Source: Bdellovibrionales bacterium
GTDB lineage: Bacteria; Bdellovibrionota; Bdellovibrionia; Bdellovibrionales; UBA1609
Reading direction: 5' to 3'
Assembly: GCA_027317865.1 (NCBI GenBank)
Contig: DAHVQG010000011.1
Coordinates: 43,079-107,078 of the forward strand
DNA length: 64,000 nucleotides
Shown here: positions 52,320 to 64,000 of the stretch, piece by piece
Position numbering within the stretch: position 1 is the first letter of the stretch
Layout of the letters: every line of letters starts with the position of its first letter
Notes under the pieces: generated by a model
Database searches by the model: none
What the model saw: only the letters and a program-made list of their open reading frames with translations
What the model was told of the DNA's origin: nothing
Translations under genes and position numbers: made by a program

Positions 52320-52393
52320 ATTATTTTGAAAACATTACGGATTGACAGATCCGCCCGTCTTCGATGATGGTCCCTAGGTCATTGGGGGGGGAT

Positions 52394-53989
52394 ATGCGAC
52401 AAACCGTTTTTCTACCGTATCGAGTTTTATTTGCCTTTTTCACAATTGTACTACTGTTGGGCTTGGCGCCGTCGGCATTCGCCCGCGAGAAATCCTGCCC
52501 CGCCTTACTCGAAAATAATTCACCGTTTGTCAGCGGCTCAAGTGAACTAAAGACCAAATGGGTTGAACAAGAATTACAAAACATCGAAAATTCGGCTGAT
52601 CCGGAACGAAAAATGGTCCGCCAAGCTAATCAAGAGCAAGGCATCGATGCTTTGTCTCTCAACCGTGAAATCATTCAAAATCATAATTCGAATTATACCC
52701 ATAAAATTGAAACGGCATGCATAACCAATCAATATCAGTCCGGCCGCTGTTGGTTGTTTGCAAGCCTCAATATGTTACGCCCCAAATTATTGGCGGCAAA
52801 CCTCGTGGACGAGAAGTTCGAATTCTCCGAAAATTACCTCTATTTTTTCGCTATGCTTGAAAAATCGAATTCATTTTTAAAGACCAGCGAAACCGCCGTA
52901 AGAAAATATGCAAATAATCGGCGAAGACTTTTAAATTACATAAATAGATATGCGTACGTTGGTGACGGCGGCTATTATCAATGGTTTGTATATCTTGCTG
53001 AAAAATATGGCCTTGTACCGAAATCGGCGATGCAAGAGGCTTCTGGGTCCGTTGATACCGAGGCCTTAACGGCGGATCTTCAGCGTAAATTGCTTCTCGT
53101 AACGGAACAAATGCGTCAGCGCGTTTTACAAGGCGGTTCAGAAAGCAAAATAGATACGGACCTTCGTGCCATTCGAGAAGCCGGCCTTCGCGACGTCATG
53201 GTTATGCTGGTAACGCATTTGGGGACACCTCCACAAGAATTTAGTTTTCGAATTGCAAAATCAAACGAGCAAACGGGCAAAAAAAATAGTAAAACCAAAA
53301 AAAGCAAGAGTAGTCCGCTCGAAATAGAAAAGGCTGTTGTCAAAAAGTTCACGCCTCAAACATTTGCGCGGAAATTCGCAAAATTCGACCCTAATGAGTA
53401 TGTAACTCTATTTTATAATCCCCGGTTTGCCCCAAACAAATTTTACGAATTGACGAGGTCAAAAATCGGTATTGAAAAAGCCCCCAAGACCCAACATGCG
53501 TATTCTGGGCTAAACTTGCCGATTGAACGGATTGAACAGTTGATCGTTAAATCAATAGATTCGGGCCAATCGCTCTATTTTGCGTCGGACGTGTTAGACA
53601 GCGCGGATTTTTCACCTAAAAACCCAGTGAAACCGGTATCAGGTATACTTCATCCAAAACTTTTTAACCACGACCCTATATATGGTTTTACTGGCGACAG
53701 ATCTTTATACCCGCCACGCCGGTTTCTCGATTTTTATCGACTGATCGCTCCGACTCATGCGATGGTCATCGTCGGTTACGACCGCCCAGATCCTCACGCA
53801 CCGGTAATTAAATTTTTAGTTGAAAACTCATGGGGCAAACGAGTGGGAGATGAAGGTTATCTTCATATGTACCGCGAATGGTTGTACCAAGATGTCTTCG
53901 CAGTTACGATTCGCCGTGATTTGCTCAACCCCGAAGAGCAAAAGGCGCTTCGCTTACCACCCACAAAAGTGAGAGAGTCGGAGTGGTAA
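52394..53989 (+). CDS. Secreted C1B cysteine aminopeptidase (PepC/bleomycin hydrolase family)
   Basis: Signal ending AFA; NQYQSGRCWLFA, DGG, THAM, VENSWG. Confidence 0.88.
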   Translation: MRQTVFLPYRVLFAFFTIVLLLGLAPSAFAREKSCPALLENNSPFVSGSSELKTKWVEQELQNIENSADPERKMVRQANQEQGIDALSLNREIIQNHNSNYTHKIETACITNQYQSGRCWLFASLNMLRPKLLAANLVDEKFEFSENYLYFFAMLEKSNSFLKTSETAVRKYANNRRRLLNYINRYAYVGDGGYYQWFVYLAEKYGLVPKSAMQEASGSVDTEALTADLQRKLLLVTEQMRQRVLQGGSESKIDTDLRAIREAGLRDVMVMLVTHLGTPPQEFSFRIAKSNEQTGKKNSKTKKSKSSPLEIEKAVVKKFTPQTFARKFAKFDPNEYVTLFYNPRFAPNKFYELTRSKIGIEKAPKTQHAYSGLNLPIERIEQLIVKSIDSGQSLYFASDVLDSADFSPKNPVKPVSGILHPKLFNHDPIYGFTGDRSLYPPRRFLDFYRLIAPTHAMVIVGYDRPDPHAPVIKFLVENSWGKRVGDEGYLHMYREWLYQDVFAVTIRRDLLNPEEQKALRLPPTKVRESEW

Positions 53990-54346: not shown

Positions 54347-55033
54347 ATGAAAAAGCACGTAATCTTCGCGGCGATCATCGCAAGTATGATTGGTACCGTC
54401 GCGTTTGCGCAAGAAGCTACTGTTGAAGATGCAGGATCGGCAGCGCAACGAGCTGCAGAGCATATCGAACAAATGCGAGGCGCAATCGGCGTTAATGCTG
54501 CCGCCGGCGTGAGTGCTGTTGGTGGCGCTGCTGAAGCCGCTCAAGGTGCCCTTTTCTCAAACAACACGAATGGCATTGCAAAAGCGTTAATCGGCCAGTC
54601 GGTTCATGTTGCAGTCGGTGGACAGTGCACGGGCAACAATGCAATGAACCAATTAACCCCAGCTCAAAAAGCCGTTATGTTTAAAGCTGAAAACATGGGC
54701 TTAGTGAATGATCCGTGCTTGGGCAAATCTGATGTATCCGTTCTCCCCGAAGTTTTGCAGATGAAACAAGCTCAAGAGCAAACGCTCGCGAATGCCGGTT
54801 TTTCAAATGTGAATGACCAAGGCGTTACCGAGTCACTCAGAGAAGCAATAATGAACTCCGAAATCAAAGCCATTTATGCCTATAGAGTCGCCCATCACGA
54901 AGCGGGTGCGACCCTAGAAGCCGCTGCCGAGACGGAAAATGAACTTCTCAACCACACGCCTGTCTGCTGGAATACAAAGGCGCAGGCCCAAGCGGGTGAA
55001 CAACTGTTACACGCTCGCTACGGGATCGACTAA
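54347..55033 (+). CDS. Secreted Ala-rich hypothetical protein
   Basis: GGGAG SD, MKKH...AFA signal peptide. Confidence 0.75.
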   Translation: MKKHVIFAAIIASMIGTVAFAQEATVEDAGSAAQRAAEHIEQMRGAIGVNAAAGVSAVGGAAEAAQGALFSNNTNGIAKALIGQSVHVAVGGQCTGNNAMNQLTPAQKAVMFKAENMGLVNDPCLGKSDVSVLPEVLQMKQAQEQTLANAGFSNVNDQGVTESLREAIMNSEIKAIYAYRVAHHEAGATLEAAAETENELLNHTPVCWNTKAQAQAGEQLLHARYGID

Positions 55034-55070
55034 AGGTCGAAGAAGTATATTTAATTAAAAACCTTTCCGA

Positions 55071-55100
55071 AAAAGGCCAGCCCCACGTGGTTGGCCTTTT
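55071..55100 (+). terminator. Rho-independent terminator (possibly bidirectional)
   Basis: AAAAGGCCA...TGGCCTTTT followed by TGTTTT. Confidence 0.75.
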
Positions 55101-55158
55101 TGTTTTGTAGTGAAATTTGACAGTTGAACATTACGTTTACACAAATCTACCGCGTTTT

Positions 55159-55220: not shown

Positions 55221-58200
55221 ATGCTCTCGAAACGGCTCTATCGTCTTATTTTAACGGCCCTTTTTACTTGGTCATCCATCGCAATGGCGACGCCCATCTG
55301 CGTGCCGGGTGAAAACGGCACATTAGCAGTAGCGCCCTTGAGCGATAGCTCGTCACAATTGTTAAACGGTTTAGCTACCGAAACAAAATCAATGCTTGAA
55401 CTGGCAACCAACGCCAGATTCAATTTATTTGAAAGCCCCGTCTCGCCTGCTACGCAACCCGCTTTGACCGTCGAAAGCGAACTCCAATCCATACGTAATC
55501 AAATCAATAACGAACTAATCCAATTTGCAAGCTCGAACAATTCGCCATTCAATCCCGCCTTAGCTCCAAAACTTCATAATTTAATAGCGCAATATTTAGA
55601 AGCCGCATTCGATTTTACCGAAATGAGCGCCTACAGTAACCCGTATTCAATAACCGCGTTTTTACCGGCGCAGCAACGAGTCGCTCTTCAGATACCCACT
55701 CCCGTGTGGATGATTTTGAATCTTGAAAAGCCGATTCCATTTGCCGCGATTATTCAGTATCTGCCTTCCGCTGTTCGTGTCAGTTTGTCGCCTGAATCTA
55801 TTTATATAGCGCTTCGAGAAGTGGCCGCGCGTTCTGAAATGTTGCAAATGCAGCATAAGGCGATTTTCGAGGTGACCCGTTGCGCGCTTTCAGACGCTAT
55901 GGTTGCACAATATTTCGCGCAAGAATCGATTCGGGGGATTGCTCCTGAACAAATTCAACTACCTATCGCCCCTGCGACTCCGGCTTGTCTGGCCCTGCCA
56001 ATTGGCGAACTTGAAAATCTACAAAGACATCGACTAGGCGAACAAAGCGAAGGGCAATTTCGAAGTGGGCTTATTGAACAAACGTTTTCTCCTGATAAAG
56101 TTGAATCGCCGCAACTCATTCAGAATCTAAATAACTTCAATCTTAACGGTCCCGACCTTCTTGCTCTTATCTGGAGTCCCGAAACCTCGACGGACATCAA
56201 CCCCAACTTAAACGCGCAAGGAGCCGGCATCATCGACGCACAGCTTGCACAAGCGGTGCAAAGTGCCGAAAAAAATGTCGCGTACTTTTCCCCACTGATG
56301 AACATGACCGCCTCGCCCGCGTTTCAAGAAATCATTAACGGGATGATTTCGTCGTGCAATCTCTCGTATTCGCCGCAAAATATATCCGCAATGTCAGCGG
56401 CTGCGACTCAAAAAATGAATGCAGATCTTTTGTACAAACTCGATCTTTCAGAAGGCGTTCTCGGTCTTAATCTGGGCGATTTTGTTAAATTTTACACTGG
56501 TCATCTCGCAAGTCTTTCGCAACTCGATCCCACCTCCGTGCGAAATGCACTCAGACAAATGTTGATTTACAAAAAGTACTCGGACGCGCGAGAAATTTTG
56601 CAGTCGTTTTTTGAACTCAAAACGTTTTCTGAAACGCCTTCGGCCACGCAGCTCGTCGACCGGCTGAGCGGCCGTCTTTACAAAATCGCAGTCAGCACCG
56701 TCGATCAAGCTCTCGCTCAACCTGCGGTTGCCCAATGGTTTAACAATATCGTTAACTTTGTGATTTCGGCGAAGGCCAATCAATCTAACGATTCAAACCC
56801 GACGTTTTTACCTCAGCGTCAGTTTGACCGGAGCGCTGTTCAACTCGCGATGATCGCCAATTTTGTACACAATCCGAAAACTCCACTTAGCAAGATTTTA
56901 TTTTACCCCAATCTAATGGCCGAAACTCGACAGGCCGCGCTTAGCACCGTTTTGACAGGTCTAAATAAGGACTATTTTAAATTAACACTCAACCAAACTA
57001 CTCCCGCTGAAAAAAAGGCTGTTTGGCAGGTCGTAAAACAAAAGATCAACCAAAAAGCACAATTTATGGGCACGAACTGCCACACCGATAGCAAATTTGT
57101 TCAAGACGCAAAAGTCGTGGCCGCGTGGGCTGAAGCATTTACGATTCAAATTCCGCAGTCGCAAAAAAGTATATATCATGAGCAATGCTCCCTCATGAGT
57201 TCTACGGCAAAGATGATGGGGCTTGAACTGCCGCAAGTGCCGCAAACTTTACAAGGTATTGTGCCGGTCTTAAATCAGGTTTTGGGCGCCAGACAAGCGC
57301 AAAAGGCTATTGCGACTTACCGCGAACTTTTAATTAAACAAATTCTATCTTCAACTCGCTTTTTACTTATGCGTTACTCTTGGCATCAAAAAAATAAAAC
57401 TGCACCTTATGTTTACCAAGTTGTCGCGGAAGCGAGCCAAAACCCGGATAAACAACGAGGGATTATCAACTGGTCCTTGCAGTACAGCAGTTCGCAACTT
57501 GCAAAAACCGCAAAAAAATATTTGATCGCACACGACATGGCCGGATTAACCGGGCTTTTTAAAGACTCGAACGGCGCTGCGGGGATGCTCGGCGATGCCC
57601 CTGCGGCACAACAAGCCGTAGTAGCAGAGGGAGATGCGGCACGTCGCTATGATCCAAGTGAAATCAACTATGAAATCTATCAGGGCGCAAAAATGGATTT
57701 TATATCTGCGATCCAGTGGATTTGGGGAATGCAAATTCTTGGAGCATTCTGGGGGCGCGCAGCCGTTTGGTCGGCTCGCCTCGATGATTTTGCCGGCTCA
57801 CTTTTTTCAACGCCTGCAATAATGGGGCAGCTTGGCATCGATTGGGCCGTTCAGCGCGCGCGCATCGGCGAAAATTCTGGCATCAAATTGTCCAACATAA
57901 ACGGAATGTATTGGTCACAAGGTTTTAAAGCATCAGGTGTGGCGTCGTTTATGAACGATGGAATGTACAGTCGCGAAACAGCTATTTTAGCGCAAGAAAA
58001 TCATCAGGCTCGTGTCCAAAAATATGTGGATTACGGCATAGGCGGCGTCGTAGCGGGAGCGTCAGCTTTTGCCACATTCGGCGATCAAATTGCAAATCGC
58101 ATGGTCCAATCGGGCCGAATTCCCTTTACTGTTGCCAGAAGGATTCGTGCGTTAAAAATGGCGGAGCTATCGGGTGACTCTGAAAAAGTCACTCGAATCG

Positions 58201-58595
58201 AAGAATCGATAAGTAAATCCGCGTCCCGGCAAGTTCGTCGTTTGGGAACTGACATGCGCGCTCTTGATAATCCAGCCAGCTTTCGACTTTCAGCGCTGAA
58301 AAGCGGGCTACGCAAGGTGCAGTTTTCACCCGAAAGTACGCAAGAGCAAATTTTTAGAGCGCAAGAAGCCTATCAAAGGATTATTAGAAACATTGGCAGA
58401 AGAGTTGAGGTTGCCGAAGCCATTGGCAGAAGAGCAAATATTACCGATATTTCCACAAAAGCCAGTGCCGCACGCTACGTTAAAATTTACGCAAACTCCT
58501 TAAGAGTTGGCGAAGACGGCACCGCACTCACTAGTCAGGAACTGATTCGACTTCACAATGCCGCAGTTGAACTCGCAAACGGCGGTGTAAAATGA
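55221..58595 (+). CDS. Very large secreted helical hypothetical protein with C-proximal hydrophobic segments
   Basis: 1124-aa ORF, signal ending AMA; FISAIQWIWGMQILGAFW and YGIGGVVAGASAFATFG segments. Confidence 0.8.
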   Translation: MLSKRLYRLILTALFTWSSIAMATPICVPGENGTLAVAPLSDSSSQLLNGLATETKSMLELATNARFNLFESPVSPATQPALTVESELQSIRNQINNELIQFASSNNSPFNPALAPKLHNLIAQYLEAAFDFTEMSAYSNPYSITAFLPAQQRVALQIPTPVWMILNLEKPIPFAAIIQYLPSAVRVSLSPESIYIALREVAARSEMLQMQHKAIFEVTRCALSDAMVAQYFAQESIRGIAPEQIQLPIAPATPACLALPIGELENLQRHRLGEQSEGQFRSGLIEQTFSPDKVESPQLIQNLNNFNLNGPDLLALIWSPETSTDINPNLNAQGAGIIDAQLAQAVQSAEKNVAYFSPLMNMTASPAFQEIINGMISSCNLSYSPQNISAMSAAATQKMNADLLYKLDLSEGVLGLNLGDFVKFYTGHLASLSQLDPTSVRNALRQMLIYKKYSDAREILQSFFELKTFSETPSATQLVDRLSGRLYKIAVSTVDQALAQPAVAQWFNNIVNFVISAKANQSNDSNPTFLPQRQFDRSAVQLAMIANFVHNPKTPLSKILFYPNLMAETRQAALSTVLTGLNKDYFKLTLNQTTPAEKKAVWQVVKQKINQKAQFMGTNCHTDSKFVQDAKVVAAWAEAFTIQIPQSQKSIYHEQCSLMSSTAKMMGLELPQVPQTLQGIVPVLNQVLGARQAQKAIATYRELLIKQILSSTRFLLMRYSWHQKNKTAPYVYQVVAEASQNPDKQRGIINWSLQYSSSQLAKTAKKYLIAHDMAGLTGLFKDSNGAAGMLGDAPAAQQAVVAEGDAARRYDPSEINYEIYQGAKMDFISAIQWIWGMQILGAFWGRAAVWSARLDDFAGSLFSTPAIMGQLGIDWAVQRARIGENSGIKLSNINGMYWSQGFKASGVASFMNDGMYSRETAILAQENHQARVQKYVDYGIGGVVAGASAFATFGDQIANRMVQSGRIPFTVARRIRALKMAELSGDSEKVTRIEESISKSASRQVRRLGTDMRALDNPASFRLSALKSGLRKVQFSPESTQEQIFRAQEAYQRIIRNIGRRVEVAEAIGRRANITDISTKASAARYVKIYANSLRVGEDGTALTSQELIRLHNAAVELANGGVK

Positions 58596-60334
58596 ATAAT
58601 TTTAAACATATTCTGCTTCGGTTGACAGCACTCGCATTGAGTTGCACTTTAGTCATCAATTTCGGTTTACCGACAAATGTCATTGCTGAGCCGGGCGCTC
58701 CCATTGCGTTGCCTGACGGGGAAACTCCAGCAACAGCAGCAGCCGGTCAGTTCGGGCAATTTCATATTTTATTAAATAATTATTTTAGGGCGTGCGCGAA
58801 ACAAGCGCTACCCGAGCAAGCTGTAATGGCCAGTTCATTTGTTCAATCCGTGATGAGTAACATGAGTTTTGATTCCGCTACGCAAACGGCGATTCAAGCT
58901 GCCGCAAATCAAACGGCGCAACCATCAACAGCCAAGCAAAAAGTCGCGCAGGTGTATGACGCGTATACCGGCCCACTCGCGCAAGCGACTTCGGCGCTTT
59001 ATAGCAATATGCTCAGTGGAACCATTGCCGATTTTAATCATAAAGCGGTAGTACTGGGTGGCGTATTAGACTTCGATCCGAAATCAGCACCTTGCGTTTA
59101 CAATTTGTGGAATGCCATCAACGAAAATTATCAAAACGATGCGAGTTTTCGAAAGCTCAAAATCGACACGAATAAATGGCATCAGTTTTTTCAAGGTGGC
59201 AAGTGGATCATCGTCGCAACAGCGCTTGTTGCCATAGCACGTCCGCAGTTTTGGAAATCCACAATCGAAAACGTCGGATCACTCGCAAGATCTGTAACAA
59301 ATTCTATTAGTAAACTTGATTGGCGCGTTGGCGACGAGACTGTCACCTCAGAAGTCGATACCGCCGGCGATTCGAGCAAAATAACAGACCGGCCAAAAAC
59401 TGAGGCTGAAATACAAGCCTTTGAAGCGCAAAAAGAATTAGACAGCATGAACGCCGATCTCAAACAAATGTCGAGCCTATTTCGCGAACAAGGCGTCACC
59501 GGCGCTGACGAGCGAACAAACGCTAAGCTTTTACAGGATGCGCTTGCGGGCGATAAAGCTGCGGAAAAACTATACGCCGAACGCACGGGCCTTAAAATGC
59601 TCTATCCGCCGAAACCGTCGCGATCCGCACTGTTCGTTCGTGAAAAACTATTATCTCGATTCTCCGCTCAGAGCATGCGAAAGGTATTGATCGGGCTAAC
59701 AAAATTCGCGGGGATTTATACCGCAGGTGGCATTGCCAACATCGGTCTGCAAAAAATTTGCGTTCAAATCCCAAAATCAACTAACTATCGCGGGCCCCAG
59801 ATTCTTGGGTGTAATTTTGGCGAACGCCTCGTGCCCCTCGATCAAGGAGGTGCTCCCGATTTGTTTCATCGCGGCTATGCGGCAATGGCCGCTCTCAATT
59901 ATACCTGTCACGTCGACCAATTCTCAAAGGGCGTCGCTTCTCTAATAAACATGCTTCAAAATAAACGCGCGCTTACACCTCAACAATATAAACTTGTAGT
60001 TGCTAACCGCGATGCGGCGCTGGCCCAACTCGCGAGTTATTTCGAGCAGTATTTATGGTTATCATCCAAAACCATTTACCGGTATCGATGGATAGCGCCG
60101 AAAGAAGTTCGTTATGATAAAAAATCCGGTGAAATTTGGCTGAGGTTGCCCGTTGGCCGTGACACTTTAACAGAACACTTTCCGTGTGAAGAGTACGCTG
60201 GTATTGCGCACCCGAATCCGCTCATGATCAGTCTTGACTACTCGAAAATGCAGCTGGGCAAAACCTACGCCCTTCTTGAAGCCTCGACTAAGGAGGTACC
60301 GCTTGAACCGCCGGCAATCGCGCCCCAAAAATAG
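58592..60334 (+). CDS. Secreted hypothetical protein with internal hydrophobic segments
   Basis: ATGA overlap with upstream gene; signal peptide; WIIVATALVAIA and FAGIYTAGGIANIGL segments. Confidence 0.8.
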   Translation: MNNFKHILLRLTALALSCTLVINFGLPTNVIAEPGAPIALPDGETPATAAAGQFGQFHILLNNYFRACAKQALPEQAVMASSFVQSVMSNMSFDSATQTAIQAAANQTAQPSTAKQKVAQVYDAYTGPLAQATSALYSNMLSGTIADFNHKAVVLGGVLDFDPKSAPCVYNLWNAINENYQNDASFRKLKIDTNKWHQFFQGGKWIIVATALVAIARPQFWKSTIENVGSLARSVTNSISKLDWRVGDETVTSEVDTAGDSSKITDRPKTEAEIQAFEAQKELDSMNADLKQMSSLFREQGVTGADERTNAKLLQDALAGDKAAEKLYAERTGLKMLYPPKPSRSALFVREKLLSRFSAQSMRKVLIGLTKFAGIYTAGGIANIGLQKICVQIPKSTNYRGPQILGCNFGERLVPLDQGGAPDLFHRGYAAMAALNYTCHVDQFSKGVASLINMLQNKRALTPQQYKLVVANRDAALAQLASYFEQYLWLSSKTIYRYRWIAPKEVRYDKKSGEIWLRLPVGRDTLTEHFPCEEYAGIAHPNPLMISLDYSKMQLGKTYALLEASTKEVPLEPPAIAPQK

Positions 60335-60452
60335 CGAAGAACGTCACCTTAATGTTAAGAAATTTGACAGTTTTGAAAAGACGTCTCGTTTTCAATGCGC
60401 GCGAGATGATATTCGATATATTGAAAGACAAGGTTTAGAGCGCTTTTTTATT

Positions 60453-60481: not shown

Positions 60482-62311
60482 ATGAAGGCATTGTTCACTA
60501 TTTTCTTATCCCTATCAATGATTCTCGGGCCATTCGAAACTACGGCCCTCGCGCAGAGCTCCCCAAGCGCCAATGCCCAAACTTCTTTGTATGGCAAAAA
60601 CTTGAATCAGTACGAGCACGAACAAATCTTCTTAGAGTCATTGCGCGATCGCACCCGGCTTTTTGAAATGATCAACTACAAATTATTTGACGTTGAAAAT
60701 CAGTGCATACATCGCAACCCATTAAACTGGAGTCAAATATCAATCGTGAATCAGGGCGACTGCAAGCAAATCGTCAGCACCATGTACGAGCAAATTCACG
60801 CGAATTATCCGGATGTGCGGATACTCTATGTTATTTACAATTTACTAAATAGCGCAAAGCGGTTTATTTTGCCTCGCCTCATCCAAAGCGAAAATTTGGC
60901 TTTTGGTACCACTCACGCTGGCGCCGCGATCGACCACTTTTTGCACCCCACGGGTTCAGTGCCTGAGCCACTAAAGTATTTAAGTTTTATCGACCCGCTT
61001 GAAGGTTTGTTGCAATTTAAGTGGTCCGGGTACATGGACGTCACGCCCTTGCCATCCGACTACCAGCAAGCAGCGACAAATTATCCTTATGGTTCGTCAT
61101 TTACCGACTATATGGAGAACTATTGCCACACTTTTATAACTTCTCATCCAGCAGATGCCCGAGGGGTTCAAAATCCGCAAGCCATCTGTTCTCAGTTCCG
61201 TTTAGTATACAATACCCAAACCAAATCGTTTTCGTTTCCGCTGACCGGGCAGGCTCGTAATTCTTACGGTCAAATTTTAACAACTGAAGCTGAACGCAAT
61301 TTATTTTTTAAAATTTACGATTATCTTGTCGCGAATCTCGGCGCGATGAAACAAAATGCGCGACAACAGTTATTACGCGTCATTCGTACTACACCTTATG
61401 TGATTCTGCTCAAATCTGCGAACCCTACGCTCACACAACTCAAAAATGCAGTTTTGCGGATCGACGGGGCGGCACTTTCTTCCGCTAATAAATTTGAACG
61501 GGAATATTTCATGTGGCTAAATGAAAAGAATCAGCCCGTCGACCCACGCGACGTTGCGAATTTGAACAGTATTCGCGAGGTACCTAAGCCGTACAATCGG
61601 GCCGCTTACATGAAACTTTTAGATCGGCAAGAAGTCGTACTCAATTTACTAAAATATCCGTCGATCGATATGATCGAAGATCCCGCAAATTACGTCGCAA
61701 TCGCAAAACATCTGACACGTGAGCGGGCCGCAAACCTTAAAAGCGAAAATCGTTGGATTAATGCCGGCCTACTTGTTGGCACTGTGGCCGTGGGTACAGT
61801 CTGTGGGCTAACGGTTGGAGCACTCACGAAAAACCCCGAACTGGCAAGCAGCAGTTGTGCCGTGCTAACCGAGGTCGCGAATTTCTCGCTGTTTGGTTAT
61901 TTCTTATGGAATTCATACAGCACTCTCAACAACGTTTTTGCTGACGTCTTTGGGAGTCAGCAAATCGGTTCGCTGCACAGTTACGGTCTCAATCGCTCTG
62001 ATTTTGCAAAATATGACCCGACGGTCACAGATCCGCAGTTTAATGTCCATGAGCGAATGCTCGCAAATGTCGACATGCTCAACGAAGCTCAACAGAACGT
62101 ATTATGGAACTGGGCGTTTTTAGTTGGCGGCTATGCACTCGCCGGCCTTCAAGAAAGTTTGTGGAAGAGCACTAAAGTCGTTGTTAAAGAAAAAGTCTTT
62201 CGCGGATTACTTCAAAAGTTAACAAAACGGCGACTTGAACGGGCAGCGGAAAGGGCGGTTCAAATTTCGAGCGAACACTCCGTCCCAACTACGAATGTGC
62301 CGGCATTGTGA
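60482..62311 (+). CDS. Secreted hypothetical protein with C-terminal hydrophobic hairpin(s)
   Basis: MKALF...ALA signal; INAGLLVGTVAVGTVCGLTVGAL, VANFSLFGYFLW, WAFLVGGYALAGL. Confidence 0.8.
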   Translation: MKALFTIFLSLSMILGPFETTALAQSSPSANAQTSLYGKNLNQYEHEQIFLESLRDRTRLFEMINYKLFDVENQCIHRNPLNWSQISIVNQGDCKQIVSTMYEQIHANYPDVRILYVIYNLLNSAKRFILPRLIQSENLAFGTTHAGAAIDHFLHPTGSVPEPLKYLSFIDPLEGLLQFKWSGYMDVTPLPSDYQQAATNYPYGSSFTDYMENYCHTFITSHPADARGVQNPQAICSQFRLVYNTQTKSFSFPLTGQARNSYGQILTTEAERNLFFKIYDYLVANLGAMKQNARQQLLRVIRTTPYVILLKSANPTLTQLKNAVLRIDGAALSSANKFEREYFMWLNEKNQPVDPRDVANLNSIREVPKPYNRAAYMKLLDRQEVVLNLLKYPSIDMIEDPANYVAIAKHLTRERAANLKSENRWINAGLLVGTVAVGTVCGLTVGALTKNPELASSSCAVLTEVANFSLFGYFLWNSYSTLNNVFADVFGSQQIGSLHSYGLNRSDFAKYDPTVTDPQFNVHERMLANVDMLNEAQQNVLWNWAFLVGGYALAGLQESLWKSTKVVVKEKVFRGLLQKLTKRRLERAAERAVQISSEHSVPTTNVPAL

Positions 62312-62383
62312 TTTTTGAAAATGAGGATTGCAGTTATGAAAAAGATTTTTGAAACGAAGATACAAGAAACAAAGGGAACGAAA

Positions 62384-64000
62384 ATGAACCGTCACTATGC
62401 GCTCTTTCTAATCGCGACAGTCTTTGCGTTCGGCATGTTGAGTTCCAGTCGAAGCTATGCGGGTGATGCACCTGAATTAGCAATCGGCCAAGGCATCGTT
62501 AATGTCATAACGGAACAGGCAACCGACATCGAAAATGAAGGCGGTCCCGTTAAGGCAATGGTCAATGCAGTAAAAAAACTCTTTGGCGGCGCGAAAGCGA
62601 ATCCGGCTGAAGACGGTAAGCTCAACGCCATAAAAAATGATTCCAGCACTTCGCGTGAAGCCTCCGATGAAGAAAACGGTGATACCGCAAAAACCGGCAA
62701 TTCTGGTGAGCAAGGACCGTCAGCAGGCTCAACAAAGGATAAGATTGTTGACGAGGTCGCAAAGGTAACCAACGGAGCATTCAAGGATCAATGGGTCGCG
62801 GCAATGAACGGAGAGTTGACGCCGGCTATTGGCAGATCTACGGAACTCGATAACGTTGCGGTTTTTGCACGAAGTCCAGAGACAAAACGCGGGATTGTTT
62901 TATTTGGCCCAACCGGCGCCGGTAAATCGGTGATATACGATGGTTTTCAACAAGAAATTATCGCTGGCGACGTGCCCGGAATCTCGAGCAACTCACGCGA
63001 ACTCGAATTTGATTTTGCGCAAATGAAGACTCCCGAAGAATTTGAGGATTATCTAACAAAAATTAAAGATTTGATAACACAACGAAAATTGCCCGGCATG
63101 AACAAAAAAGCGGGAGAAGAAAATCCGCACATATTTTTGCGCGGCAAAAATGCGGAACTTTTCGGCAAGCCCGATAGAGACCAACAAGCGGCCATGCCAC
63201 CCTTCGATCAATACTACGGTGCGGCTCAAAAGGTTTTCGGCAAAGATGCCACCTTTTTAATTGAAATACCCGGTGCCCAAGATATCGACCCCGAAACCGG
63301 CAAGCCTAAAGCCACAACAGAGGCTTTGACCACGGCATTTCCGTTTCTCAAAAGTAAAGGCTGGCGTTTTCAATTTGTGGGCGAAATGGGTTTTACCCAG
63401 TCAAAAGAAGCTCTGAGCGAATTCATAAACAACCTCGAACGTAAAAATGGCGTTACAATATCTGATGAAGTGGTCAATTTTGCCGACCAAATTTGCCGAC
63501 GAGTCTACGTGGACAAAGTCCAGCCCGGCTGTACAGCTTATCTACTTGAAGAAGCCATCGGCCGAAACCTCAGAATGTTGCGCAAAGGCCGCGCCCCGAT
63601 ATTAGCTGAAGATTTGTACAAACAAAAAGAGAAACTTGTTGAACGACTTCAGCACATGCAATCACTGACTGGCCGTTACGCGCGGGAACAAGCTGAAAAG
63701 CTCCCGGGCCAAATCAAAGAGATTGAAGATGAAATCGCTAAAATCGAAGCCTATACAAATCGAATGGCTGAGGCGTCCAAAAAATTAAAAGAAGGACGAA
63801 AACTTCAAGATGACCTCACACTTCTTATCGCAAAGCTCAAAGCCGAACCTTCGCAAGCGGCAAAACTTCGCGGCGAGATTGACTCCCTAAAAGAAAAAGT
63901 TGCGTCGCTTAAAGAAATAGAAAAAGAGGCTCGAACTCTAACTAAAGAAGATTTAGCGGTCCAAGCTCACCACGACACAAAGATTTCGTATCTTGAGATT
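62384..64000 (+). CDS. ClpB-like AAA+ protein with N-terminal signal peptide (partial, runs off window; not in ORF track)
   Basis: My translation: MNRHYALFLIATVFAFGMLSSSRSYA signal; GELTPAIGRSTEL; Walker A GPTGAGKS at 62906-62929; EEFED; GVTISDE...YVDKVQPG...LLEEA; coiled-coil M-domain; in-frame ATGs also at 62321 and 62336. Confidence 0.8.
   Translation, partial: MNRHYALFLIATVFAFGMLSSSRSYAGDAPELAIGQGIVNVITEQATDIENEGGPVKAMVNAVKKLFGGAKANPAEDGKLNAIKNDSSTSREASDEENGDTAKTGNSGEQGPSAGSTKDKIVDEVAKVTNGAFKDQWVAAMNGELTPAIGRSTELDNVAVFARSPETKRGIVLFGPTGAGKSVIYDGFQQEIIAGDVPGISSNSRELEFDFAQMKTPEEFEDYLTKIKDLITQRKLPGMNKKAGEENPHIFLRGKNAELFGKPDRDQQAAMPPFDQYYGAAQKVFGKDATFLIEIPGAQDIDPETGKPKATTEALTTAFPFLKSKGWRFQFVGEMGFTQSKEALSEFINNLERKNGVTISDEVVNFADQICRRVYVDKVQPGCTAYLLEEAIGRNLRMLRKGRAPILAEDLYKQKEKLVERLQHMQSLTGRYAREQAEKLPGQIKEIEDEIAKIEAYTNRMAEASKKLKEGRKLQDDLTLLIAKLKAEPSQAAKLRGEIDSLKEKVASLKEIEKEARTLTKEDLAVQAHHDTKISYLEI

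Follow-up and report, generated by a model that had tools for sequence, protein, structure and literature searches.

A divergent ClpB-type Hsp100 protein with a predicted export signal and a degenerate first nucleotide-binding domain in Bdellovibrionales

Results

The gene and its two contig ends

The stretch of DNA analysed here (the window; 64,000 nucleotides (nt), positions 43079-107078 of contig DAHVQG010000011.1, henceforth C2) comes from the genome of a Bdellovibrionales bacterium (assembly GCA_027317865.1, henceforth G000). At its very end it carries, on the plus strand, the 5' part of a gene for an Hsp100-like protein (62384-64000, 538 codons), which an earlier note, made from the letters of this DNA alone, had described as a signal-peptide-bearing ClpB-like AAA+ protein with a crippled first nucleotide-binding domain (NBD1). 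The analysis presented below supports this description and finds it to be true of a whole small protein family. The reading frame is open from any of three starts (TTG at 62315, ATG at 62336, ATG at 62384) and remains so, as had been noted, until the window ends; the window's final base is also that of C2, which ends at 107078, and the gene is therefore truncated by the contig end, with no stop codon.

The 3' part of the gene was found at the end of another contig of the same genome (C4, positions 81717-80233 of the minus strand), where 495 open codons are followed by a stop. The last 495 nt of C2 and the end of C4, read on its minus strand, are identical at 444 of 495 positions and align without gaps. 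The genes upstream of the C2 end, with products of 228, 1124, 580 and 619 amino acids (aa), recur at the loci L011 of genome G005 and L012 of genome G006, both of which belong to the same genus and possess single, intact loci; the genes downstream of the C4 end are present at the same loci, with protein identity of 71-75%. Because both flanks are syntenic with single intact loci, we conclude from the gene order that the two contig ends represent one locus. A metagenome contig of 4066 nt from the run X1 matches the final 223 nt of the window with 0 mismatches and extends 3843 nt beyond its end. In three other public metagenomes (runs X2-X4), two variants coexist within the gene, one of which has a 3-nt deletion at 63120 that corresponds to a one-residue gap at the same place in P0001, a full-length homologue introduced below. 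These co-occurring variants explain why the assembly breaks within the gene. They are seen to coexist from about position 62860 on (62860-64000), with, for instance, 13 differences in 186 nt, while the upstream 1002 nt of the same X2 contig show only 2 differences; this part of the gene either is a place where strain diversity is concentrated or contains a recombination boundary. As a further observation on the assembly, several short contigs of G000 (C15, C18, C20, C24-C28, C32, C34 and C35; approximately 500-1700 nt) have a G+C content of 60-73%, compared to about 47% for the genome, and are probably foreign to the bin.

The ratio of nonsynonymous to synonymous substitution rates (dN/dS) between the two variants is 0.116 over the 495-nt overlap, where 15 of 165 residues differ, and because of this low value the gene is considered to be under purifying selection and not a decaying copy. 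Downstream frameshifts, which the earlier note had named as the expected sign of a decaying clpB, were looked for and none was found in the 538 and 495 stop-free codons of the two parts. Full-length homologues are encoded in six further genomes (G001, G002, G004, G005, G006 and G007). Modelling and searches were based on a full-length homologue of 883 aa, P0001, which aligns with 100% of the window product at 92% identity and whose numbering runs 16 residues ahead at the N-terminus.

Relationship to ClpB and other Hsp100 proteins

Comparison of P0001 with the sequences of the Protein Data Bank (PDB) by phmmer retrieved 53 distinct Hsp100 chains, the best of which was ClpB of Thermus thermophilus (1qvr, E-value 1.3e-37). 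One aligned stretch covers the region of the NBD1 P-loop, and the second comprises the small domain of NBD1, the M-domain and the large domain of the second nucleotide-binding domain (NBD2). With such an E-value, the likeness to ClpB at the sequence level is far beyond chance. An AlphaFold2 model of P0001, built from a 79-row alignment, has a mean predicted local distance difference test score (pLDDT) of 82.2 and a predicted template modelling score of 0.74, and residues 140-883 are well ordered. In a Foldseek search of the PDB with this model, the top matches were ClpC, ClpB and Hsp104 (E-values 1e-35 to 1e-25), and the HSP101 chain of PTEX (6e10_5) ranked 39th (E-value 1.4e-26). The phmmer alignments, the model and the Foldseek matches agree that two AAA+ modules of Hsp100 fold follow each other in tandem, the arrangement that defines class 1 of Hsp100/Clp proteins.

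In Pfam, the C4 fragment passes the threshold of AAA_2 (57.2 bits, cut-off 27), as well as those of AAA and AAA_5; the AAA_2 region lies outside the window itself, and PF07724 is among the Pfam assignments of P0001. The window product gives only sub-threshold matches to P-loop and coiled-coil families (e.g. AAA_16 with 17.6 bits, where 32.6 are required). None of the curated NCBIfam models of named Clp proteins is reached: the ClpB equivalog TIGR03346 (cut-off 1232.1) scores 119.2 bits with P0001 and 41.8 bits with the window product, and the scores of P0001 for ClpA (97.5), ClpV/TssH (96.7) and ClpG (95.1 bits) are all far under the respective cut-offs. PADLOC returned only weak P-loop or coiled-coil matches for P0001. 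Judging from these scores, none of the named Clp proteins is orthologous to the window protein, which is best described, at the level of sequence, as a class-1 (two-ring) Hsp100 that is divergent but of ClpB ancestry. G000 also encodes ordinary forms of ClpB (in a frame of 870 codons), ClpA and Lon, all without signal-like N-termini; the Hsp100-like gene is an extra copy beside the ordinary clpB.

A degenerate NBD1 and a motor-complete NBD2

In the position of Clp_N, the window product contains a linker (62462-62734) in which D, E, S and G abound and which is predicted to be disordered. The Clp_N family (PF02861) has no match in the 538-aa window product and is absent from the Pfam assignments of P0001, and the model of P0001 has pLDDT below 50 at residues 1-3, 12-19, 34-55 and 83-132, with means of 10-residue blocks below 65 through residue 130, i.e. 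along the signal and the linker. The linker is followed by the NBD1-like AAA+ module (62753-63568), recognized from the alignment with 1qvr, the family alignment and the model. Its Walker A motif GPTGAGKS (62906-62929), together with GELTPAIGRSTEL, aligns with residues 164-237 of ClpB 1qvr, and YVDKVQPGCTAYLLEEA aligns with the YI.DR.LPDKAIDL.DEA block of ClpB. The position of the ClpB Walker B motif ILFIDELH is occupied by IFLRGKNAE (IFLRGKN at 63131-63151, with D replaced by K and E by N), and the position of AGAKFRGEFEER by TPEE-FEDYLTK. The pore-loop Tyr is missing, and of the RR pair only one Arg remains (WRFQ). The sensor-1 strand of the subtype to which the window's protein belongs carries an insertion, EIPGAQDIDPETGKPKA. 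A ClpB-type M-domain, a four-helix coiled coil, lies at 63602-63931; it is modelled in P0001 as helices 422-442, 446-484, 486-502 and 504-531, and the stretch aligns with the M-domain of 1qvr, so that the protein has a long M-domain inserted in the NBD1 small domain. The anatomy outlined in the earlier note, i.e. the acidic low-complexity linker in place of the Clp N-domain, the NBD1 landmarks of ClpB (each of which was located), the loss of the pore loop and of Walker B, and the M-domain-like coiled coil, is thus borne out by the alignments and the model.

The states of the functional motifs were compared in an alignment of 11 family members for NBD1 and 10 for NBD2 with two ClpB references, at approximately 20% identity. 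In NBD1, the Walker A consensus GxxGxGK[ST] is retained in 9 of 11 rows, including that of the window (GPTGAGKS); the DE of Walker B is found in none of the 11 (K and N in the window, DD in one row), an aromatic pore-loop residue again in none, and no row has the RR pair of Arg fingers in the aligned columns. In NBD2, Walker A is retained in 9 of 10 rows, and the DE of Walker B, the Asn of sensor-1 and the Arg finger in all 10, while the column of the pore-loop Tyr contains Y in six rows, H in two, F in one and N in one. The Arg of sensor-2, which has no counterpart to be scored in NBD1, is present in 8 of 10 NBD2 rows. An NBD2 with intact Walker A and B motifs, which the earlier note had recommended to look for beyond the window, is present both in P0001 and in the C4 fragment, where the motifs read GDPGTGKT, LLIDEF, LTSNLG and LLRRI. 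The residues of a catalytically competent NBD1 (DE of Walker B, pore-loop Tyr and Arg fingers) are missing. Because of these motif states, NBD1 is predicted to be at most nucleotide-binding, and NBD2 appears to have everything that a working Hsp100 motor needs.

A pair of cysteines in the small domain of NBD1 (C386 and C398 in P0001; ICR...PGC, window 63494-63532) is shared by all three proteins of the window's subtype, and ClpB lacks it; the two residues could form a disulfide. Mature proteins of the family have 0-3 Cys residues, few or paired, compared to a median of 4 among 140 Clp-like matches, which lends weak support to an extracytoplasmic location.

The signal-like N-terminus

The first 26 residues of the window product (62384-62461) resemble a Sec-type signal peptide, with a positive n-region (MNRH), an h-region with a 14-residue core (YALFLIATVFAFGML) and a c-region (SSSRSYA). 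The 11-residue hydrophobic window that starts at residue 6 has a mean Kyte-Doolittle value of 2.67, and the likely site of signal peptidase I, read by eye, lies between SYA and GD. We scored family members by a heuristic with three components, namely the positive charge of the n-region, the hydrophobicity of the best 11-residue window and the presence of AxA-type sites. It was passed by 12 of 13 family proteins, all except P0004 (P0005 was counted from an internal Met), and by none of three ClpB and ClpC controls; inspection by eye revealed this pattern also in the homologues from G007 and G001. Both the Sec-like signal proposed in the earlier note (MNRH, a hydrophobic core and SYA) and its possible presence in homologues have found support in this way. 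The positive charges precede the hydrophobic cores, which are about 12-15 residues long, and in 12 of 13 proteins they are followed by AxA-type sites located 20-36 residues from the N-terminus. Apart from the signal, the hydrophobicity heuristic detected no hydrophobic segment in P0001. Two other types of signal were considered for the window protein and rejected, a lipoprotein signal, as no Cys follows the hydrophobic core, and a Tat signal, as N-R-R is lacking both there and in the closest relatives. Among distant members of the family, P0010, P0011 and P0077 have N-R-R just ahead of the hydrophobic core, which resembles the Tat motif.

A rare family

When 1.84 billion representative proteins were searched exhaustively with HMMER, only 4 of them reached an E-value of 1e-30 or better, and there was a handful of further matches in which a single stretch extends from NBD1 to the C-terminus. 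The members gathered (P0003-P0006, P0010, P0011, P0072, P0077, P0079 and P0095) are 650-901 aa long and 24-37% identical to P0001. Among the genomes, the family is represented in the window's genus (G001, G002, G004, G005 and G006) and in a second genus (G007). When 401 genomes sampled from across the phylum were searched with a single sequence, only G000, G006 and G007 gave a match over most of the length, and in 16 further genomes only the P-loop stretch of ordinary ClpB was matched. Matches to a hidden Markov model (HMM) of the family began at the model's first positions in G006, G007 and G004 only, and at position 18 in the case of the window's copy in G000; in most genomes the match was to ordinary ClpB and began around position 106. 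Two candidates were scored per genome and the best 150 matches considered, so these members are a lower bound for the phylum. Scans of genome contigs found no relatives with P0001 and 2 loci with P0003, and the alignment of the window's subtype (A6) found none in metagenome contigs. By these searches, the family is rare. The homologue from G006 (L012:10001-12673) has a collagen-like insertion (GPPGPNGEPGTPGVPG) near the C-terminus, which was found only there among the homologues read.

A co-conserved membrane partner and other neighbours

The Hsp100-like gene is preceded by a gene (60482-62311, plus strand) for a protein of 609 aa, counted from the ATG at 60482 (a TTG lies upstream, at 60452). 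The predicted product consists of a signal peptide, an N-terminal domain of approximately 400 aa with four invariant Cys residues (C75, C94, C215 and C236) and a hydrophobic segment (residues 430-448 according to a transmembrane heuristic) that occupies a conserved place near residue 430; the four cysteines fit an oxidising compartment. A signal-bearing protein of this type (540-630 aa) is encoded next to the Hsp100-like gene, in tandem or divergently, in 7 of 7 loci, namely in the window and in G005, G006, G007, G001, G004 and G002. In searches of small ORF (open reading frame) sets, the E-values were 1.2e-13 for G007, 3.2e-11 for G001, 4.8e-17 for G004 and 3.9e-7 for G002, the last two for partial matches. 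The partner has no match in Pfam, NCBIfam or PADLOC; its profile retrieved nothing under an E-value of 0.36 from the PDB sequences and only the window's own protein in a word-index search, its alignment (A5) found no relatives in metagenome contigs, and the best score in an Atlas search was 0.81, a weak match.

The two genes belong to a run of four co-directional genes (55221-58595, 58592-60334, 60482-62311 and from 62384 onward). The first encodes a signal-bearing orphan of 1124 aa (55221-58595, plus strand), whose syntenic counterparts in G005 and G006 are 32-33% identical and which is found also in the G007 cluster (E-value 1.7e-30); its stop overlaps the start of the second, which encodes a signal-bearing orphan of 580 aa (58592-60334, plus strand), syntenic in the same genomes at 28-32% identity. 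Upstream of the run, a gene for a signal-bearing protein of 228 aa (54347-55033, plus strand) is followed on its 3' side by a strong terminator-like hairpin (55070-55101); this protein has 62% identity in G005, over no more than 37 residues, and 30% in G006. The heuristic finds signal-like N-termini in the products of all genes of the run and in the 228-aa protein, and the neighbours of the Hsp100-like gene have no match in Pfam, NCBIfam or PADLOC. The whole cluster is syntenic in G005 and G006 at 28-39% identity, with about 28-33% for its four signal-bearing orphans, compared to 71-76% for flanking housekeeping genes, and by this measure it appears to evolve fast.

Two further loci are worth mentioning. 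On the plus strand at 52364-53989, the window encodes a protein of the Peptidase_C1_2 family (aminopeptidase C / bleomycin-hydrolase type; Pfam E-value 8.2e-71) with a signal-like N-terminus (hydrophobic window mean 3.07, site between AFA and REK). Enzymes of this type are usually cytoplasmic, and this one may be another example of export, in this organism, of an enzyme whose type is normally cytoplasmic. Elsewhere in the genome (C38:25305-29948), there is an ordinary operon of prkA, DUF444-type and spoVR-type genes with no Clp-like gene inside; the N-terminus of PrkA (MSAGDWGNINFQ...), inspected by eye, has no signal-like start.

Discussion

A proposed mechanism

The gene itself, its homology and fold, the states of its motifs, the conservation of a signal-like N-terminus, the pairing with the partner gene and purifying selection are established. 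On this basis, we propose that the gene encodes an exported unfoldase of the Hsp100 type, driven by NBD2 and working with the adjacent membrane partner outside the cytoplasm, a proposal which we hold with evenly balanced confidence. Its further elements, i.e. actual export and cleavage of the signal, formation of a hexamer, the source of ATP, binding of the partner and the substrates, are those that we infer. The protein would be made with a cleavable Sec signal and leave the cytoplasm, and the mature form would have a disordered linker in place of the substrate- and adaptor-binding Clp_N. NBD1 would retain the P-loop but, having lost Walker B, the pore-loop Tyr and the Arg pair, would neither hydrolyse ATP nor grip the substrate; it would probably act as a nucleotide-binding assembly tier that bears the M-domain. 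NBD2, with Walker A and B, pore loop, sensor-1 and Arg finger retained, would be the sole motor, and the hexamer would thread or unfold polypeptides outside the cytoplasm of the producer. Its partner would be the exported membrane protein encoded next to it, joined in the window's genus by three further exported orphans. A plausible setting would be the interface between predator and prey, where ATP derived from the prey may be at hand. Action inside a prey or host cell, as suggested in the earlier note, would fit the Bdellovibrionales affiliation of the genus.

Several points weigh against this proposal. An intact motor outside the cytoplasm requires an unproven source of ATP, and the periplasm is held to lack it. 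Export is a prediction from the heuristic and from conservation, and the deposited form of P0004 fails the heuristic. The window's own NBD2 is read from the variant contig end C4 and from the homologue, and not from a single continuous sequence; in its own subtype (2 of 10 rows), the sensor-2 Arg is lost. The model of the partner has a pLDDT of 47, and the pairing of this protein with the Hsp100-like one is known from gene adjacency. Finally, the source genome comes from an uncultured organism that is presumed to be a predator.

Other explanations

The difficulty with ATP would disappear if the N-terminal segment were an uncleaved anchor and the AAA+ protein faced the cytoplasm, using cytoplasmic ATP to feed proteins to a membrane complex of its neighbours or to extract them from it. 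The long disordered linker could then serve as a tether, and the partner and other neighbours do have hydrophobic segments that possibly span the inner membrane. According to the positive-inside rule, however, positive charges before the core and neutral or acidic residues after it predict the N-in/C-out orientation, and this is the arrangement found here, which would place the AAA+ modules on the outer side. Moreover, short cores with AxA-type sites in 12 of 13 proteins make up the pattern of cleaved signals and not of anchors. We regard this explanation as unlikely, although of those considered as alternatives to the exported unfoldase it deserves the most attention. The lack of ATP in the periplasm, which is general knowledge, and the clear degeneration of NBD1 could also suggest an exported ring that does without ATP, i.e. 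a holdase, passive scaffold or binding platform in which the ATPase features are relics. The earlier note had offered such an ATP-hydrolysis-independent scaffold as one of its interpretations, and it is disfavoured by the state of NBD2: although the rows share only about 20% identity, all 10 of them have the DE of Walker B, the Asn of sensor-1 and the Arg finger, which would be unexpected for a relic, Walker A is kept in 9 of 10, and the pore-loop residue is aromatic or His in 9 of 10. A passive ring seems to us quite improbable.

It could be also argued that a gene split between two contig ends, with no more than 90% identity in their overlap, is a decaying duplicate of clpB or an artefact of assembly. 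This is hardly credible, as the flanks of the contig ends are syntenic with the intact loci in G005 and G006, metagenome contigs extend past the window end and co-occurring variants account for the break, both parts of the gene are free of stops and the dN/dS between the variants is 0.116, and six other genomes (G001, G002, G004, G005, G006 and G007) encode full-length homologues.

Implications

Textbook Hsp100/Clp machines of Bacteria are cytoplasmic, as they need ATP, and no description of a signal-bearing bacterial Hsp100 was found among the matches listed in full-text literature searches. A conserved family that combines a predicted export signal with an intact motor ring would imply extracytoplasmic ATP, for a Bdellovibrio-type bacterium most plausibly that of invaded or attached prey, or else some other use of the ring. 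The family would also provide a natural case of an Hsp100 in which NBD2 is the only motor and NBD1 no more than a nucleotide-binding shell, and the five-gene set of fast-evolving, predicted exported orphans to which it belongs supplies candidates for a predation apparatus.

Comparison with known systems

The closest known relatives, ClpB and Hsp104 (e.g. 1qvr), share with the window protein two AAA+ modules, a long four-helix M-domain inserted in the small domain of NBD1 and an AAA_2-type NBD2 with a GYVGY-like pore loop, and they provide its best matches in sequence and in NCBIfam. A further likeness, read by eye, is that the tripeptide by which other Clp proteins dock to ClpP is not seen in P0001 in the stretch from sensor-1 to the Arg finger. 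On the other hand, the window protein has a signal and no Clp_N, its NBD1 is without Walker B, pore-loop Tyr and Arg pair, the identity is only about 19-21%, and G000 has an ordinary ClpB too. ClpC, ClpA, ClpV (TssH), ClpG and ClpK are likewise similar in the class-1 Hsp100 fold, match the NBD2 with E-values of 1e-27 to 1e-23 and include the top Foldseek match (ClpC). However, the scores are far under the curated cut-offs and the M-domain here has the length of that in ClpB, unlike the short type of ClpC. The proteins of this second group are cytoplasmic.

A different kind of likeness is found in HSP101 (ClpB2) of Plasmodium, a component of PTEX. HSP101 carries a signal peptide for the endoplasmic reticulum, it is an Hsp100 outside the cytoplasm of its producer, and the gene described here is also paired with one for a membrane protein. 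The partners of HSP101, EXP2 and PTEX150, have no detectable likeness to the partner found here. In a review of PTEX (PMC7355975), HSP101 is described as a ClpB-type unfoldase that acts in the vacuole surrounding the parasite, and its NBD2 pore loops are described as threading cargo through the membrane pore of EXP2 and PTEX150. According to the same review (PMC7355975), this eukaryotic protein has an N-terminal domain and both of its NBDs are active, in which it differs from the one described here. The functional likeness to PTEX is an analogy only. Carried to its full extent, it would make the window protein a bacterial counterpart of PTEX, an exported hexamer that docks on its partner in the envelope of prey or predator and, during predation, threads proteins across this membrane with ATP leaked or taken from the prey; such a counterpart is a doubtful, if attractive, extrapolation, and if true, it would represent an ATP-driven protein translocase at work outside the bacterial cytoplasm. 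From its sequence, then, the window protein is an Hsp100 of a known kind that is new in its predicted location, its one-motor design and its conserved partner.

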